A model generated the notes under the pieces. That model was not told the DNA's origin, searched no databases, and saw nothing but the letters and a program-made list of their open reading frames with translations. Below, piece by piece: positions 16,630-23,167 of a stretch of DNA of 64,000 nt (position 1 is the first letter of the stretch; every line of letters begins with the position of its first letter). The position numbers and the translations under genes are program-made. The DNA comes from Escherichia phage JEP8: the sequence record MT764208.1. One strand, given 5' to 3'.

Positions 16630-18873
16630 TTACAGCTTGCAAGATGAGCACTCGCTAGAGTCTTCCGTACCATCTGCACCGTCGCGAACGTTCGCATAAT
16701 ACAGGGTTTTCAGACCGTAATATTGAGCAAACAACATATCATCTAAAACATCAGCAATATCGACTTTACCAGTCTTATAAGTGCTTGGATCGTAGGATGT
16801 ATTGGAACTAATCGCCTGATCCACAAACTTCTGCATGATCGCTGCCAGTGTCAGATAAGGCTTGTTACCTTTCTTGATCAGTGTCCAAAGCAGGTCAATA
16901 ACATCAGCATTATTCTCTACGTTCGGAATGACCTGATTAAATTGCCCTTCTTTCGATCCTTTAACCGATACAATCCCGCGAGGCGGTTCAATACCGTTTG
17001 TGCTGTTAGATACCTGAGAAGACGACTCACACGGCATCAGCGCCGAAAGTGTACTGTTACGAATGCCATATTTTTTCAGGTCTTCGCGCAGTTCTTCCCA
17101 ATCCATCTCATACACAGGATCAACCAGTTCATCTACTGTCTTTTTGTACCAGTCGATAGGAAGTTCACCGCGACCATAGCGTGTTTCGTGCATCAGTTCG
17201 CAAGCACCCTTCTCTTTAGCCAGTTGCACACTAGCCTTAATCAGAGCATATTGCAAGCGTTCAAACGTTTTATGCGTAAACTCGTTAGCGTCTTCATATG
17301 TGAAGAAATTATCTGCTAGATATGATGCAAAGTTAGTCACACCAACACCCAGAGAGCGACGTTTTTTGGCTGTCAGAGCTTGTTCTACAGGATAATCCTG
17401 GTAATCTAACAGGTTGTCAAGTGCACGCACCATAACCATAGCGATCCGCTCTACTTCTTCCATATTTTCGATATCAAAGTTTCCTAAAACATATGCTGCC
17501 AAAGTACATAGGCTGATCTCTGAATCATCACGACCCATCGGTTTAGTAGGCAGAGCAATTTCACAACACAGGTTAGATTGTTTAATCGGTGCTACATTAC
17601 GAATAAACGCCCCGTGATTGTTCATGTTGTCTGTGAACGTTGGGTAGATTCGACCAGTGTTAAAACGTTCAATTGCCACCGCTAAAAACAGGTCTTCGGC
17701 TTTAACACGAGTTTTACGAACACTCGGATCTTTTTCCAGTTTTTCGTAAAGCTGACGGAAACCTTCCTCATCTCGGAAGTATAGATCCCACAACAAGCCA
17801 CCTGCAACATCTGGACTAAACAGAGTAATGTAATCCCGTTTAAGGAATCGCTCTACCATCAGGTTATTAATCTGTACGCCGTAATCAAGATGACGAATGC
17901 GGTTATCTTCCACCCCCTTATTGTTCTTTAACACAATCAGACTTTCAAACTCTAAATGCCACATTGGGTAATAGAGAGTCGCCGCCCCGCCACGAATACC
18001 GCCTTGTGAGCATGACTTAACAGCAGTCTGAAAATGTTTCCAGAATGGGATAACGCCAGTATGACGAACTTCACCATGCCCGATCTTAGATCCTTCCGCG
18101 CGAATCATGCCAGCGTTGATACCGATACCAGCACGCTTGCTAATATACTTGATGATTGCATTTGCTGTTTCGTTGATGCCCTGCAATGAGTCATCACTTT
18201 CAATCACAACACACGAACTAAATTGGCGTGTTGGTGTACGCACACCTGCCATAATCGGAGTAGGCAGAGAGATTTGCTTATTCGCAACAGCATTATAAAA
18301 ATCAATCACATGTTCAAGTCGATTTTCTGTCTCTTCTTGATGCAAGCACATACCGATCAGCATATACGCAAATTGCGGTGTTTCGATGATTTTCTTAGTG
18401 CTGCGATCCTGAACAAGATATTTCTCTTTTAACTGCATAGCACCAGCATAGGTCATTTTAAAATCAAGTTTATGGTCGATGAATTTCTCCAGATATTCCA
18501 CTTCTTCACGGGAATACTTTTGTAGAATTTCACGATCATATTTTCCGGTTGCAATATTACGCTCAATATGGCTGTAAAAATCAATCGGTTGGAATTGACC
18601 GTATACTGATTTGCGAAGCGCGAACATTGCAAGGTTACTTGCTACATATTGATAATCTGGTGTTTCTACAGTAATGTTATCTGCGGCGACCTTAATCAAT
18701 ACTTTCTGGATATCATTGGTAGACATACCTTCTGTCAGAAGTGGTTCAACCATATCAAACAATTCATATGGATCAACGTTATGACCTTCGGCTGCCGCTT
18801 CCAGAATTTTCATTACTTTTTCTTTTTCAAACGGAACAGTCAGACCGGAAGACTTAACAACATTTTTAATCAT
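16630..18873 (-). CDS. nrdA: ribonucleotide reductase class Ia large (alpha) subunit
   Basis: 747 aa with N-terminal ATP-cone and C-terminal cysteines; similar to T4/E. coli NrdA. Confidence 0.93.
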   Translation of the reverse strand: MIKNVVKSSGLTVPFEKEKVMKILEAAAEGHNVDPYELFDMVEPLLTEGMSTNDIQKVLIKVAADNITVETPDYQYVASNLAMFALRKSVYGQFQPIDFYSHIERNIATGKYDREILQKYSREEVEYLEKFIDHKLDFKMTYAGAMQLKEKYLVQDRSTKKIIETPQFAYMLIGMCLHQEETENRLEHVIDFYNAVANKQISLPTPIMAGVRTPTRQFSSCVVIESDDSLQGINETANAIIKYISKRAGIGINAGMIRAEGSKIGHGEVRHTGVIPFWKHFQTAVKSCSQGGIRGGAATLYYPMWHLEFESLIVLKNNKGVEDNRIRHLDYGVQINNLMVERFLKRDYITLFSPDVAGGLLWDLYFRDEEGFRQLYEKLEKDPSVRKTRVKAEDLFLAVAIERFNTGRIYPTFTDNMNNHGAFIRNVAPIKQSNLCCEIALPTKPMGRDDSEISLCTLAAYVLGNFDIENMEEVERIAMVMVRALDNLLDYQDYPVEQALTAKKRRSLGVGVTNFASYLADNFFTYEDANEFTHKTFERLQYALIKASVQLAKEKGACELMHETRYGRGELPIDWYKKTVDELVDPVYEMDWEELREDLKKYGIRNSTLSALMPCESSSQVSNSTNGIEPPRGIVSVKGSKEGQFNQVIPNVENNADVIDLLWTLIKKGNKPYLTLAAIMQKFVDQAISSNTSYDPSTYKTGKVDIADVLDDMLFAQYYGLKTLYYANVRDGADGTEDSSECSSCKL

Positions 18874-18920
18874 ATTACCTCACTTCATATTTTAGCAGGA
18901 ACAAGTTTATCCTCCATATT

Positions 18921-18936
18921 GGGGGCTTTCGCCCCC
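18921..18936 (-). promoter_or_regulatory. RNA stem-loop GGGGGCGAAAGCCCCC immediately after td stop
   Basis: 6-bp GC stem with GAAA tetraloop 7 nt after the td stop, upstream of nrdA RBS. Confidence 0.55.
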
Positions 18937-18942
18937 TTTTGT

Positions 18943-20175
18943 TTATACTGCCATTTGAGCGGTGATCGCTGGATGGCTTTGATAGTTGTGAATTTTAAAG
19001 TCTTTCGGAGTCTTTGTCAATACCTCATCTAAAGATTTAAATTCCGGCAACTCGATTGTTGGTTTATCAAACGGAACACGGCTTAACTGTTCCATAACTT
19101 GATCAAAATGGTTTTTGTAAATGTGAGTATCTCCACCAGAGAAAATCAGTTCTCCTACCTCAAGGTCACACATTTTAGCTATGATGTGAGTTAACAGCGC
19201 ATAGCTGGCGACGTTAAAGGGCAAGCCCAAAAAGCTGTCTACGCTTCGCTGAAACCACATACAAGACAGTTTACCCTCATTGACATAGAATTGCACGAAC
19301 GGATGACATACACCTAATACAGCATTATGTGTTCCTTGTACGTTCCATGAGTCAATGATGATACGTCGATCCGTTGGATTGTTTTTAATTTGTTCAATCA
19401 CGTTTTGTAACTGGTCTTCCCAAATCTTCGGGCGATAGACATATTCTTCATCGTCTTTAGTGCTCGATGTGTCTACGTCCATACTAGCAAAGATCGTGGT
19501 ATCGGGTGCTAAAATATCCCCACCCAGATAATCACTATCAAGCAGATAACCGAAATAACCATCATCTACCCATTCCTGGAATCCCCACAAGCAATATGCA
19601 TCATTAACAAAATTAGATTGAGTCTTCCAGTGATCTGCTACTAAGAATTGATTATATTCAGAATCAAACTCTTCATAACGCATACCACGCCAGATAGCAC
19701 ATAAACGGTCTTCTGTGTCGTTGGTTGGCGTAAAGTCTTCTACCCACGGGTGTTTAAATGTATGTGTATATTTGCTCTTAACGCGCTTAATTTTGATTTC
19801 ACCGTGTGGATGAATCGGTTTGCGTCGCCATGCCATACCATACATATTGCCAACATTATAGCCGTTGAATCGTAGCGGATTCTTTTCTTTCATATCAAGA
19901 CAGTTGCCGCGCCAAATGTCGAAGGCTTCTTCGTCAAACTGACCGCGTGTAATTTCCTGTAATCGACGGCGGTCAAGTGATCCCTCCATAAACCATAGCA
20001 ACTCGCCAATTACAGAGGCTGTAGCCATCTTTTTAGTGGTCAGTAATGGGAAACCCTTGCTTAAATCAATTCGCATCTCTGCGCCGAATTTAGAGAGCGT
20101 ACCTACCCCCGTGCGGTCTTCACGAGGCCAGCCATTATCAAGAACATCACGCAATAGTTTCAAATATTCTTTCAT
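18943..20175 (-). CDS. td: thymidylate synthase with ~110-aa internal insertion
   Basis: N-terminal (DRTGTGT, TTKK), catalytic (CH.F.QF), and C-terminal (LGLPFNIASYALL, HPAITAQMAV) TS blocks present; 410 aa versus ~286 for T4 Td. Confidence 0.88.
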   Translation of the reverse strand: MKEYLKLLRDVLDNGWPREDRTGVGTLSKFGAEMRIDLSKGFPLLTTKKMATASVIGELLWFMEGSLDRRRLQEITRGQFDEEAFDIWRGNCLDMKEKNPLRFNGYNVGNMYGMAWRRKPIHPHGEIKIKRVKSKYTHTFKHPWVEDFTPTNDTEDRLCAIWRGMRYEEFDSEYNQFLVADHWKTQSNFVNDAYCLWGFQEWVDDGYFGYLLDSDYLGGDILAPDTTIFASMDVDTSSTKDDEEYVYRPKIWEDQLQNVIEQIKNNPTDRRIIIDSWNVQGTHNAVLGVCHPFVQFYVNEGKLSCMWFQRSVDSFLGLPFNVASYALLTHIIAKMCDLEVGELIFSGGDTHIYKNHFDQVMEQLSRVPFDKPTIELPEFKSLDEVLTKTPKDFKIHNYQSHPAITAQMAV

Positions 20176-20416
20176 CCCACATCACCTTTTTCTTATTGAT
20201 TGCTTTCTTACGCAGTTTTGCTACTGTCTCGTCAATATTGATAAAGACAACGCCCGGATCGAATACAGTAACAGGTCTTGAAATGTCGCTATTTTCCTGT
20301 ACTGGAAGCCATGACGCTTGAGCTTCATCATAGAGATATTGTAAGCCGTAATAATCTACGGCTACTGCGTAGTTTTCACTGGTAGCCGTCCATAATTGAA
20401 TAATACTGATTTTCAT
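20147..20416 (-). CDS. hypothetical protein (89 aa after trimming)
   Basis: trimmed to ATG 20416, coupled (TAATG) to the upstream micro-ORF. Confidence 0.4.
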   Translation of the reverse strand: MKISIIQLWTATSENYAVAVDYYGLQYLYDEAQASWLPVQENSDISRPVTVFDPGVVFINIDETVAKLRKKAINKKKVMWDERIFETIA

Positions 20417-20508
20417 TATTGTTCCCGTCCACAATGTAAACACCGACTACCAGCAAACATCAAAGATTCACCACAATGTTTGCACTCATAATCTGTCAGA
20501 ATTTTCAT
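20416..20508 (-). CDS. 30-aa zinc-ribbon micro-protein (MKILTDYECKHCGESLMFAGSRCLHCGREQ)
   Basis: hand-translated; two C-x2-C pairs; directly after frd stop. Confidence 0.35.
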   Translation of the reverse strand: MKILTDYECKHCGESLMFAGSRCLHCGREQ

Positions 20509-20509
20509 G

Positions 20510-21091
20510 TTACGCCTTCTTACGTTCTAAAATTTGTTCGCTGACCAGGTAATCATCAAGGAAGTAATTATGTTCTTCTTTTGTTGCAAAGTTAAAATAT
20601 AATTCCTGAATCATTTCCTTAGAGATTCCAACATCATGTTCAAATGGATCGTTGATCCCTGAACGTTGAACATACGTTAACACAATACGGTCCGCAAAGT
20701 CAACCGCTTTTTCAATCAGGGAAGGTCCACCGATAACACTTACCAAACCTTGCAATTTCTCTATGACTTCTAATAATTCCTTCAATCCACCATCATTAGT
20801 AATCGCGGTATACACATCAGGTTGTTCGCCGTTTTTTGCTTTCGGTGCTGGCTTACTGGTATCGGTACTAACAACCACATTCACACGACCTTCCAGTGCT
20901 TTAGGGAGACTTTCAAAGGTATTACGTCCCATTACAACCGCCGCAAGATCAACATCTCCCATAGTGCGCATTTTAAAGTTTTCCATGTCCTTTTTGATTG
21001 GACGACCCCACGGTAAACCGCCTTTAAAACCAAACGCCCAATTTTCATCTGACATTTTAGTGTCACCAATCGCAAATACACATTGAATCAT
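20510..21091 (-). CDS. frd: dihydrofolate reductase
   Basis: 193 aa; DHFR pattern (GLPW, GR.T..S, VIGG); adjacent to td as in T4. Confidence 0.85.
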   Translation of the reverse strand: MIQCVFAIGDTKMSDENWAFGFKGGLPWGRPIKKDMENFKMRTMGDVDLAAVVMGRNTFESLPKALEGRVNVVVSTDTSKPAPKAKNGEQPDVYTAITNDGGLKELLEVIEKLQGLVSVIGGPSLIEKAVDFADRIVLTYVQRSGINDPFEHDVGISKEMIQELYFNFATKEEHNYFLDDYLVSEQILERKKA

Positions 21092-21467: not shown

Positions 21468-21495
21468 ATTATACACTATTGCGTTACGCTGTCAA
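21468..21495 (-). promoter_or_regulatory. early promoter TTGACA-N16-TATAAT
   Basis: drives 21107..21436. Confidence 0.55.
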
Positions 21496-23112
21496 CTCTT
21501 TTTCAAAAGTTTTTACGATATACATGATAGTGCTCAATTCAGACGGCGCTACTGTTTCTGTGTAGCCATCCGGCATATCTTCTTTTGAGATATAGGAAGT
21601 TTTACCTTTCATCGCTTCCTTGATCTTGTTCTCTAAGTCTAAGATCTTTTGACCGTCTTGTAAAGTCAATTCATAAAAGATCTCGTGGTTGAATTTGGAA
21701 AGTCGAGATTGACCTCCAATTCGTTCTTTTGTTGTTCTATTGGTTATTCCAAATTTAACGCCAACGAATATTTTTTCTTTTATTAGTTTTTGAATATACA
21801 ATACTCCTTTTTTTAAGGTATTATATCCATATTGTGCGCATTTAGGACAACGAGTTCCTTTCTGAAAGTTTGTTATTGTCGGTGTAAATTCATGGCCTTC
21901 ACTACACACCAAATTTAACTTTGTAGACACACCGTTCCATTCTCCAATAAATCCATTAAATATGATATTTTCTTTTTCGAAAATTGGTTTAAGTCTTTCA
22001 AGATATTCTTCTTTTGATAATGCATAATTATTTGCACATTTAGGACAACGAGTTCCATTCTGAAAACTGGATATGATAGGAGTGAAATTGTGGCCTTCAC
22101 AACACACCAAATCCAATTTTGTTACGTTACCTTTCCACTCACCAACGATTCCATTACAGGTTATATTTTCTTTAATAAATATCGGTGCTAATTTTTCGAA
22201 ATATTCTTCCTTTGGAATCAATTTACGTTCTCTTAATTTAAGAGCTTTACATTTCGGACAGCGGCGACCTTGTTGAAAAACTGCTATGCTCGGGGTGTAA
22301 TTGTGTTTTTCATTACACACCAAATTCAGCCTAGTTCTGCTACCTTTCCACTCACCAACGATTCCATTACAGGTTATATTTTCTTCAACGAAGATTGGTT
22401 TTAATCTTTTAAAATATTCTTCTTTTGATATTTTTCTACTGTTTCTCCAGTTGATAATACCGCAGGTCGAACACCTATTACCGGATTGAAAACCGTTTAC
22501 AGTCGGTGTAAATTTATGGCCTTCACTACACAATAAATTCATTTTTGTTGTGCTTCCGTTCCATTCTCCAATAAATCCATTAAATACGATATTTTCTTTT
22601 TCGAAAATTGGTTTAAGTCTTTCAAGATATTCTTCTTTTGATAGTAATTTCAATTCTCTTAATTTAAGAGCTTTACATTTAGGACAACGACTTCCGACCT
22701 GAAATGCTGTTATCGTCGGAGTAAATTCATGATCCTCACAACATGTTAAGTTTAGTTTTGTGTGCACGCCTTTCCATTCTCCGACGAATCCATTAAACTT
22801 TATATTTTCCTCAATAAAGATTGGTTTAAGTTTTTTATAATATTCTTCTTTTGATAGGGCATAATTATTTGCGCATCTAGAGCATCGTTTACCTTTTTGA
22901 AAATCTGATATTCTTGGTGTAAATTCATGTCCTTCACAACACACCAAACCCAATTTTGTTACGTTACCTTTCCACTCACCAACAAATCCATTAAATACGA
23001 TATTTTCTTTTTCGAAAATTGGTTTAAGTCTTTCGTAATATTCCAATGGGCTAATCGAGTTATAATTTTTCTTAACCCATTCAATCTCATGCGCCTTACG
23101 TACCAACATCAT
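21484..23112 (-). CDS. six-repeat Cys/His-rich protein with C-terminal T5orf172/GIY-YIG-like domain
   Basis: six ~70-aa tandem units (EEY.E.LKPIF..ENI.FNG..GEW.G...KLNL.C.EGH.FTP.I..FQ.G.RC..C) then GVLYIQKL...VGVKFGITNRTTKERI; start trimmed to ATG 23112. Confidence 0.6.
   Translation of the reverse strand: MMLVRKAHEIEWVKKNYNSISPLEYYERLKPIFEKENIVFNGFVGEWKGNVTKLGLVCCEGHEFTPRISDFQKGKRCSRCANNYALSKEEYYKKLKPIFIEENIKFNGFVGEWKGVHTKLNLTCCEDHEFTPTITAFQVGSRCPKCKALKLRELKLLSKEEYLERLKPIFEKENIVFNGFIGEWNGSTTKMNLLCSEGHKFTPTVNGFQSGNRCSTCGIINWRNSRKISKEEYFKRLKPIFVEENITCNGIVGEWKGSRTRLNLVCNEKHNYTPSIAVFQQGRRCPKCKALKLRERKLIPKEEYFEKLAPIFIKENITCNGIVGEWKGNVTKLDLVCCEGHNFTPIISSFQNGTRCPKCANNYALSKEEYLERLKPIFEKENIIFNGFIGEWNGVSTKLNLVCSEGHEFTPTITNFQKGTRCPKCAQYGYNTLKKGVLYIQKLIKEKIFVGVKFGITNRTTKERIGGQSRLSKFNHEIFYELTLQDGQKILDLENKIKEAMKGKTSYISKEDMPDGYTETVAPSELSTIMYIVKTFEKELTA
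21800..23055 (-). repeat. six tandem ~210-bp coding repeats inside the 542-aa gene
   Basis: repeat units evident in protein and DNA (recurring tttccactcaccaacgattccattacaggttatattttc-type segments). Confidence 0.7.
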
Positions 23113-23139
23113 TTTATCCTCCGTTGTTTCGATGTGTGC

Positions 23140-23167
23140 ATTATACATTACATCATCAGCATGTCAA
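23140..23167 (-). promoter_or_regulatory. early promoter TTGACA-N16-TATAAT
   Basis: drives the 542-aa repeat-protein gene. Confidence 0.55.

Follow-up and report, generated by a model that had tools for sequence, protein, structure and literature searches.

The gene for thymidylate synthase (TS; td, or thyA) in Escherichia phage JEP8 contains an in-frame block of 135 amino acids that is foreign to the enzyme. The block lies in the 64,000-nucleotide stretch of sequence record MT764208.1 analyzed here (the window), part of an RB49-like, T4-type phage of the genus Krischvirus. By sequence comparison, it is a truncated relative of the IPA-HNH homing-endonuclease-like genes, an origin that the initial annotation of this DNA overlooked. 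The insert is probably a fossil, an in-frame and never-spliced remnant of a homing endonuclease gene (HEG) of the ICP1 gp59-like, ‘AP2-associated HNH’ type. This reading is carried by the homology and architecture of the insert, by the decay of its motifs, by the selection acting on it, by its fixation in Krischvirus and by the presence/absence polymorphism of longer versions in jumbo phages.

The extra block of thymidylate synthase and its relatives

Td matches the Pfam thymidylate synthase family (PF00303, E 1e-84) as two pieces with 135 foreign residues between them, and the in-frame, non-TS insertion proposed in the initial annotation is thus real. The parts of the gene are as follows.

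18943..20175, minus strand: td/thyA coding sequence, 410 amino acids plus stop (open reading frame list; PF00303, E 1e-84)
19822..20175, minus strand: TS N-terminal segment, residues 1-118, ending ...GNMYGMAWRR (aligns to E. coli ThyA 1-99)
19417..19821, minus strand: in-frame insert, residues 119-253, KPIHPHGEIKIK...EYVYRPKIWE (boundaries from alignments)
18946..19416, minus strand: TS C-terminal segment, residues 254-410, with catalytic residues (aligns to E. coli ThyA 110-264, 165 bits)

Residues 1-82 and 110-264 of E. coli ThyA align to residues 1-82 and 254-410 of Td. In multiple alignments, 136 residues lie between W116-R117 and D254-Q255 of Td, compared with 10 (AWPTPDGRHI) in E. coli and 5 in T4. 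The non-TS block, KPIHPH...RPKIWE, accounts for 135 of these, a net gain over E. coli of about 126 residues, and it sits in the loop matching E. coli ThyA 100-109, directly after the YG.QWR helix. The initial annotation had described about 110 residues at 19480-19825; the site was right, but the block is larger and extends 63 nucleotides (nt) further on its C-terminal side. It had also placed the block in the small domain; the site is next to the textbook small-domain insertion point rather than at it. That insertion, in the L. casei enzyme, comprises residues 90-139, between the IWDEW helix and GDLG.VYG, and an insert of this type was rejected because in 1lca it lies upstream of YG.QWR, whereas the window insert lies downstream of WR. 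The enzyme is otherwise intact: the alignments show no variation at Td R21, E58, W88, C290, R310, D313, N321, H351 and Y353, and all of the catalytic and substrate-binding residues of TS are intact. Td therefore has the fold match, the catalytic cysteine and the residues binding deoxyuridine monophosphate (dUMP) and folate that define ThyA (PF00303), the E. coli reference residues being R21, E58, W80, C146, R166, D169, N177, H207 and Y209. The reading frame of the insert is open and free of stops, and insert and window have the same GC content (0.405 and 0.4045). The gene is 97-98% identical in nucleotide sequence to td of RB49, AV108, ECD7 and others in Krischvirus, and all of it, insert included, is covered in 58 of 58 matching Krischvirus-type phage records.

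With a group I intron known from T4 td, and with phage TS genes as established targets of HEGs, there would be some case for a spliced element, be it a group I intron, an intein or a ribosome bypass, that leaves a mature Td of about 275 residues. The evidence nevertheless makes such an element hardly credible. An E-value scan of 18700-20500 against Rfam returned no intron or other RNA family, the only match being a chance one to a small RNA (E 0.41). The open frame encodes a conserved protein sequence, with a ratio of nonsynonymous to synonymous substitutions (dN/dS) of 0.12-0.29, and it is kept down to 38% insert identity; group I and group II introns were rejected on these grounds, and the initial annotation was correct in calling the block translated and not an intron. 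It was equally correct that intein boundaries are missing. No Hint or intein domain is present among the Pfam matches of Td, of the insert or of its longer relatives, the junctions WRR-KPIH and KIWE-DQLQ read R-K and E-D rather than C/S...HN followed by C, S or T, and in the AlphaFold2 (AF2) model the two ends form a continuous beta-hairpin with the TS core. An intein was therefore rejected. So was an out-of-frame HNH gene hidden within the block, as described for ShiLan, since the largest alternative-frame open reading frames (ORFs) overlapping the insert are 41 residues on the opposite strand and 38 on the same strand.

Taken alone, the insert has no Pfam match, reaches PHROG 2081 (‘HNH endonuclease’) only at E 0.2, and finds nothing in a word-indexed homologue search, in place of which full-length and profile queries were used. 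Pfam and NCBIfam leave the insert, the long inserts and their free-standing relatives all unrecognized; only PHROGs recognizes them. The poor scores of the insert alone, together with the variable length of this loop among phage TS (5, 10, 28, 33 and 37 residues), would favor an ordinary, lineage-specific loop expansion whose HNH likeness is spurious. We regard this as very improbable, since the transitive and direct profile evidence is strong. A tblastn search of phage genomes with the insert recovered all Krischvirus copies, and also matched the 517-residue thymidylate synthase of the Klebsiella jumbo phage KP13-7 (E 5e-12) and a 477-residue TS-like protein of Vibrio phage D69, annotated as ‘HNH endonuclease’ (2e-5). 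Both hold an insert at the same TS site. Searching 5.8 billion proteins with the whole of Td gave 25 long TS (401-613 residues), all in phage-like contexts with frd, nrdAB, gp32 or RNA ligases close by, and their inserts fall into size classes of 127-145, 194-198 and 234-284 residues. When the window insert was run exhaustively in HMMER against 1.84 billion representative proteins, only 12 matched, and 11 of these are TS matched or split at the same position. Every TS insert is located between WR and DQ. The carriers of long inserts (194-284 residues) are jumbo phages of Klebsiella and E. coli, Vibrio phages and metagenomic phages.

It is these long inserts that reveal the family. They match the ‘HNH endonuclease’ families PHROG 2081, 953 and 374 at E 1.7e-33, 1.5e-25 and 1.8e-20, and have tblastn matches in 1020 phage records, mostly to small free-standing genes. 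One of the matches (E 1e-10) is GP59 of ICP1, which counts among the founders of the IPA-HNH homing endonuclease genes (gp59, gp115/116 and gp209 of ICP1; Barth, Dunham & Seed 2023, PMC10448857). These have divergent HNH-like domains that are missed by the Pfam HNH_3 model, usually next to an AP2 DNA-binding domain (PMC10448857). The long TS inserts align almost end to end with the free-standing proteins, in the module order of an N-terminal beta module, a GVGYLG linker, a core and a NUMOD-like tail. The family core can be written Y..W..M..RC...W..F..F...LDKD...Y.P.TC...N, and the tail resembles the I-HmuI NUMOD-like tail of a phage Athena protein. AP2 is found only in the free-standing members and not in the TS inserts; a PDB profile search with 36 free-standing members returned only AP2 domains (plant AP2). 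The short inserts can also be linked to the family directly. Their profile aligned with that of the 36 free-standing proteins in hhalign at 95.9% probability (E 5.8e-9), the motifs W..M, W..F, LD.D and SP.T.F are shared in register, and a hidden Markov model (HMM) of the free-standing family, run against a six-frame translation of the 64-kb window, matched the td insert segment and nothing else. By significant homology the window insert is thus a member of the IPA-HNH family. Nor is it ordinary variation in related phages, the outcome that the initial annotation would have taken as a refutation: the insert is fixed in Krischvirus but is a recognizable foreign module.

The free-standing relatives occupy typical HEG positions. 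In Salmonella phage UAB_1, for example, one separates nrdA from nrdB; in Vibrio phage D252 another lies between primase and polymerase, and a third follows polA in phage VEcB. In Klebsiella phage vB_Kp_Z1, a free-standing IPA-HNH-like gene (201 residues) splits the annotation of the large terminase gene terL (L007:1680-4368), which is probably intron- or HEG-interrupted. In a tree of the inserts, the TS-embedded copies form a single clade whose nearest free-standing relative, P0132, has the same module order. The canonical catalytic histidine is a lysine in this IPA-HNH-type family, and a comparison with I-HmuI in hhalign was not significant, the register being suggestive. Fold searches with whole Td models were dominated by TS matches.

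A number of other phage genes came to light in these searches. The long-insert TS of D69 (L003:2138-3571) and phiKp_21 (L002:1955-3508) are mis-annotated as ‘HNH endonuclease’ and ‘hypothetical protein’, respectively; the D69 protein is a divergent member of the TS superfamily with 38% core identity. On a metagenomic T4-like contig with a short-insert td (L020:4588-7239), a 237-residue gene with a faint I-HmuI NUMOD-like match splits nrdA, which recalls the mobE-split nrdA of phage Aeh1. Other oversized phage TS were found as BFVD matches, namely those of 201phi2-1 (Pseudomonas, 457 residues), D3 (460 residues) and PS1 (752 residues), both of Aeromonas, and a siphovirus (564 residues), and these may hold other embedded modules.

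Decay, fold and selection of the Krischvirus copy

Within the window insert the following segments can be distinguished.

19786..19824, minus strand: basic beta-strand 1 of the stalk, residues 118-130, RKPIHPHGEIKIK (DSSP strand in the AF2 model, predicted local distance difference test score (pLDDT) ~88-95)
19480..19725, minus strand: core homologous to the IPA-HNH domain, residues 151-232 (hhalign, tblastn, HMM)
19672..19707, minus strand: degenerate ‘Y..W..M..R’ helix, RLCAIWRGMRYE, with Y changed to C, R changed to E, and W and M kept (motif table; helix 153-170)
19564..19593, minus strand: CLWGFQEWVD, the best-conserved motif of the TS-embedded inserts (alignments)
19471..19545, minus strand: decayed beta-beta-alpha-like segment, LLDSDYLGGDILAPDTTIFASMDVD (motif table; strands 210-213 and 228-231)
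19414..19443, minus strand: beta-strand 2 of the stalk, leading back to TS, residues 245-254, YVYRPKIWED (DSSP strand 245-254)

Both strands of the stalk carry motifs that are shared with the relatives: P.PHG...I.RK in strand 1 is conserved in long and short inserts, and (Y)V.RP.I..DQ at strand 2 is conserved in all inserts. Between them, much of the long form is gone. The window insert has neither beta module nor GVGYLG linker nor NUMOD-like tail, so that in its 135 residues the AP2 or NUMOD-like DNA-binding domain and beta module expected of an IPA-HNH protein are lacking; the long inserts keep the beta module and tail. The residues that define the family have been lost as well. Nearly all of the 41 free-standing proteins have the same R, D-K-D, Y and N (E-K-D in one of them), and so do all long TS inserts apart from the decayed P0020, with N changed to S in P0007 and P0008. 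At these positions the window insert reads E, D-S-D, L and D, and the family-invariant residues are lost in all nine short inserts. The net charge of the window insert is -12, compared with +7 for the long insert of KP13-7, and only its first 26 residues are basic. These changes bear on whether the Krischvirus insert could still be a mobile element, that is, a working homing endonuclease domain aimed at insert-less td. It belongs by homology to a HEG family, and its long relatives show gain/loss polymorphism. However, the D-K-D...Y...N segment now reads D-S-D...L...D, the beta and NUMOD-like modules are deleted, the charge is strongly negative, and Krischvirus shows no presence/absence polymorphism, all of which leaves present-day activity of this copy with very little credibility.

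What remains is predicted to be a well-formed domain. The AF2 model of Td, built from a 42-sequence alignment, has a mean pLDDT of 93.7 and a predicted template modelling score (pTM) of 0.92, with blocks of the insert at 76-98. The insert is modelled as a helical, small-sheet domain on a two-stranded beta stalk (residues 118-130 and 245-254), a confident separate domain that bears out the independent extra domain suggested by the initial annotation, which had called for structure prediction. The 517-residue relative was modelled equally well, and its TS core matches solved TS structures. By the Nei-Gojobori method, dN/dS is 0.12-0.29 in the insert and 0.01-0.14 in the TS core. Identity in the insert drops faster than in the core (0.51 compared with 0.68 to P0003), and the insert stays in frame even in relatives whose identity is down to 64% in the core and 38% in the insert. 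Judging from the model and these ratios, the window insert is a real, folded and translated domain under purifying selection.

The conservation of the insert raises the question of whether it has been put to use. One possibility is that the domain is of HEG origin but was exapted, the remnant being kept for a function such as docking Td to a partner in deoxynucleoside triphosphate synthesis or replication, or modulating TS activity or stability. A dN/dS well under 1, the retention of the frame to 64% core and 38% insert identity, the fixation in 58 of 58 records and a pTM suggesting a defined orientation relative to the TS core would all be in keeping with this. So would CLWGFQEWVD, which is the top-conserved motif and specific to TS-embedded copies. 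It is missing from most aligned free-standing relatives, being an alignment gap in five of six such sequences; its columns are a gap in Athena, D252, UAB1 and VEcB, and KpZ1 is partly aligned (VEGFELF). On the other hand, purifying selection is equally expected where misfolding would kill an essential enzyme, the insert has no known partner or binding motif, the family-invariant residues and basic character have been lost, and many sister TS lineages thrive with loops of 5-37 residues. We therefore consider exaptation unlikely, though clearly the strongest competitor of the fossil reading. The protein-protein interaction envisaged in the initial annotation finds no support in these results. 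It drew on T4 Td as a baseplate component, a claim from early biochemistry that is not known to have been borne out by modern baseplate structures.

Apparent mobility of the long form and a proposed history

Presence/absence polymorphism among close relatives is a HEG-like trait, and it can be seen for the long form. The long gene (1554 nt) is found in KP13-7, phiKp_21 and E. coli phage UE-S1, whereas td measures 930 nt in RaK2, K64-1 and Muenster, which belong to the same genus. In the 1.5 kb ahead of td and in its first 60 nt, KP13-7 and RaK2 have a nucleotide identity of 98-100%. Within td before the insert, identity runs through 85%, 75% and 98% and then falls to 56-61% nearing the insert; it is 52-70% just after the insert and 90-95% beyond the td stop codon, and 97-100% is reached again some 1.3 kb past the insert. 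The trough thus spans the insert, starting about 300 nt before it and ending about 1.3 kb after it, and has the shape expected from co-conversion of flanking sequence. The td of ph0011 (L026) has KP13-7-like termini, a Vibrio-D69-like center and a different insert, and the jumbo-phage td alleles (L001 in KP13-7, L025 in RaK2 and L026 in ph0011) appear to be mosaics. In the T4-like TS clade, P0024, with a 281-residue insert, has a core identity of 92.5% to P0054 (28-residue loop), 89% to P0029 (5-residue loop) and 58% to P0012, so that presence and absence are seen for P0024 and P0054 as they are for KP13-7/UE-S1 and RaK2/K64-1. No such polymorphism was found among the 58 Krischvirus records. 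Together with the tree, these patterns suggest that td captured the element once and that it then passed from td to td and by vertical descent.

With these observations in hand, a history of the insert can be outlined. An ancestor resembling the free-standing P0132, equipped with a beta module, a GVGYLG linker, a Y..W..M..RC / LDKD..Y..N core and a NUMOD-like tail, would have become embedded in td at the tip of the surface loop matching E. coli ThyA 100-109. Full-length versions (194-284 residues) persist at this loop in jumbo and Vibrio phages and appear to travel from one td allele to another, taking flanking td sequence along. In the lineage of Krischvirus, fixation of the element would have been followed by decay: the beta module and NUMOD-like tail would have been deleted, the invariant R, D-K-D, Y and N replaced, and the domain turned acidic. 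The remnant would still be translated with Td as a compact helical/beta domain, held off the catalytic core by the two-stranded stalk. Its maintenance by purifying selection can be explained most simply because an insert that is unfoldable or imprecisely deleted would destroy an essential enzyme. We infer that the insert once had nuclease and homing activity and that it lacks a present function. A HEG life cycle without splicing (invasion of a permissive loop, spread, fixation and decay) is the most economical reading.

Several points weigh against this history. Homing of IPA-HNH proteins is unverified in PMC10448857, and nuclease activity is likewise not demonstrated there. The 28-37-residue loops of insert-free alleles look like the stalk and the opening residues of the insert (e.g., DWVDYKFSSDPNEIQLLKSKGYKVLDYTGSHGVVMHRST and ...HIERKNFGPAHLGG... 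in RaK2 td, L025:1501-2430, and TS of the P0027/P0054 type), and the stalk may predate the element or be its deletion scar. The KP13-7/RaK2 mosaic could stem from ordinary recombination of co-infecting phages rather than from endonuclease-driven homing. The TS inserts form a single clade, and vertical descent with a few events of recombination could also account for most of their distribution. Lastly, purifying selection and the TS-specific CLWGFQEWVD, the best conserved of the motifs, could mean an acquired function.

The fossil reading can be extended to the long inserts, with greater reserve. Those of KP13-7, UE-S1, ph0011, Vibrio phage D69 and the metagenomic phages might be active homing elements that form a permanent surface domain of the enzyme and convert insert-less td in co-infection, with Krischvirus Td as the end stage, a fossil beyond clean deletion and maybe nearing exaptation. 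We put this forward tentatively and give it rather less than even credence. If true, the active long inserts would use a third strategy for residing in an essential gene, one that involves neither RNA splicing nor protein splicing.

Neighboring genes, significance and known systems

In the window, td is flanked by nrdA (16630-18873) and frd (20510-21091), the usual frd-td-nrdA order. A 98-residue ORF (20147-20443, minus strand) has a 3' end that overlaps the td start by 29 nt and is without a Pfam match; an 89-residue gene overlapping it is a ‘hypothetical protein’ in RB49 (ORF236c), Phi1, JSE and JK32. Just upstream of frd, a 554-residue ORF (21484-23148, minus strand) contains six tandem CapR-homology/treble-clef zinc-ribbon repeats (PF21817, E 9e-32; PF14311), and its C-terminal region, judged by eye only, resembles a T5orf172-type nuclease. 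Such an architecture is that of the T5orf172/CapR homing endonucleases (Barth et al., PMC10448857), and the nucleotide-metabolism cluster would therefore hold a second HEG-type gene. Some Krischvirus isolates (SAP) have glucosylated methyl-cytosine DNA, and the genus is without known hydroxymethylcytosine synthases and glucosyltransferases (PMC13390438). A link of Td to this modification was dropped, as Asn321 (E. coli N177) is kept, which argues for ordinary dUMP specificity.

Literature searches on RB49, Krischvirus, jumbo phages and HNH together with TS found no description of the td insert, most subscription-journal papers lying outside their coverage. IPA-HNH genes have so far been described only as free-standing or gene-splitting, and an unspliced, in-frame life as a side domain is barely documented for selfish elements. 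HEGs are thought to survive in essential genes only within self-splicing introns or inteins, or else between genes. The td insert is a well-sampled case of a textbook enzyme that simply accommodates a HEG-family module as an inserted domain, with the stages visible side by side: intact (jumbo and Vibrio phages), apparently transferred with co-converted flanks (KP13-7 compared with RaK2) and decayed (Krischvirus). It is a concrete example of how selfish nuclease modules are able to become new domains of host proteins. The insert also explains the 410-residue Td of RB49-type phages and the labels ‘HNH endonuclease’ and ‘hypothetical protein’ wrongly given to some such genes. In practical terms, td inserts form a naturally occurring map of a place where ThyA permits insertion, and the phages of E. 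coli and Klebsiella, combined with thyA complementation, offer a tractable system in which unspliced in-frame homing can be tested.

The td insert can be compared with several known systems. The IPA-HNH genes themselves (PMC10448857) share its homologous core (Y..W..M..RC, W..F..F, LDKD..Y.P.TC..N), and the long TS inserts align with them over nearly their full length, beta module included. However, the known genes usually have a C-terminal AP2 domain, whereas the td module lies inside ThyA without AP2 and, in the window, is truncated and has lost the invariant residues. Its nearest precedents are found in actinobacteriophage DNA methylases, namely the ShiLan domain and the ‘lone’ LAGLIDADG (Arsenault, Gosselin & Gogarten 2025, PMC11855218). 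These, too, are in-frame, read-through insertions in a conserved phage enzyme gene without intron or intein features, with a disjunct distribution suggesting homing and a predicted loop-out that spares the host enzyme. ShiLan differs from the td case in its host gene and HEG family; moreover, its HNH is out of frame and its in-frame product is poorly structured, whereas the in-frame product of td is the HEG homologue itself and is confidently folded. In the case of inteins with embedded homing endonucleases, a HEG-derived domain is likewise translated in the host protein at a conserved site, and the long and short TS inserts parallel the course of an intein from invasion through fixation to a decayed ‘mini’ form. 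The td insert, unlike an intein, has no Hint domain or splice-junction residues and therefore stays in the mature enzyme. The group I introns of T4 td (I-TevI) and B. mojavensis thyA (I-BmoI) are similar in that TS genes are homing targets and co-conversion of the flanks is expected, but they are spliced at the RNA level, encode GIY-YIG enzymes and occupy a different td site, while the window module is HNH-related and translated, with no intron. Lastly, the 50-residue small-domain insert of L. casei and S. aureus ThyA is, like that of td, inserted at the surface in this region of TS without harm to catalysis; it differs in lying before GDLG.VYG, about 15 residues upstream of the window site, and in being unrelated in sequence.

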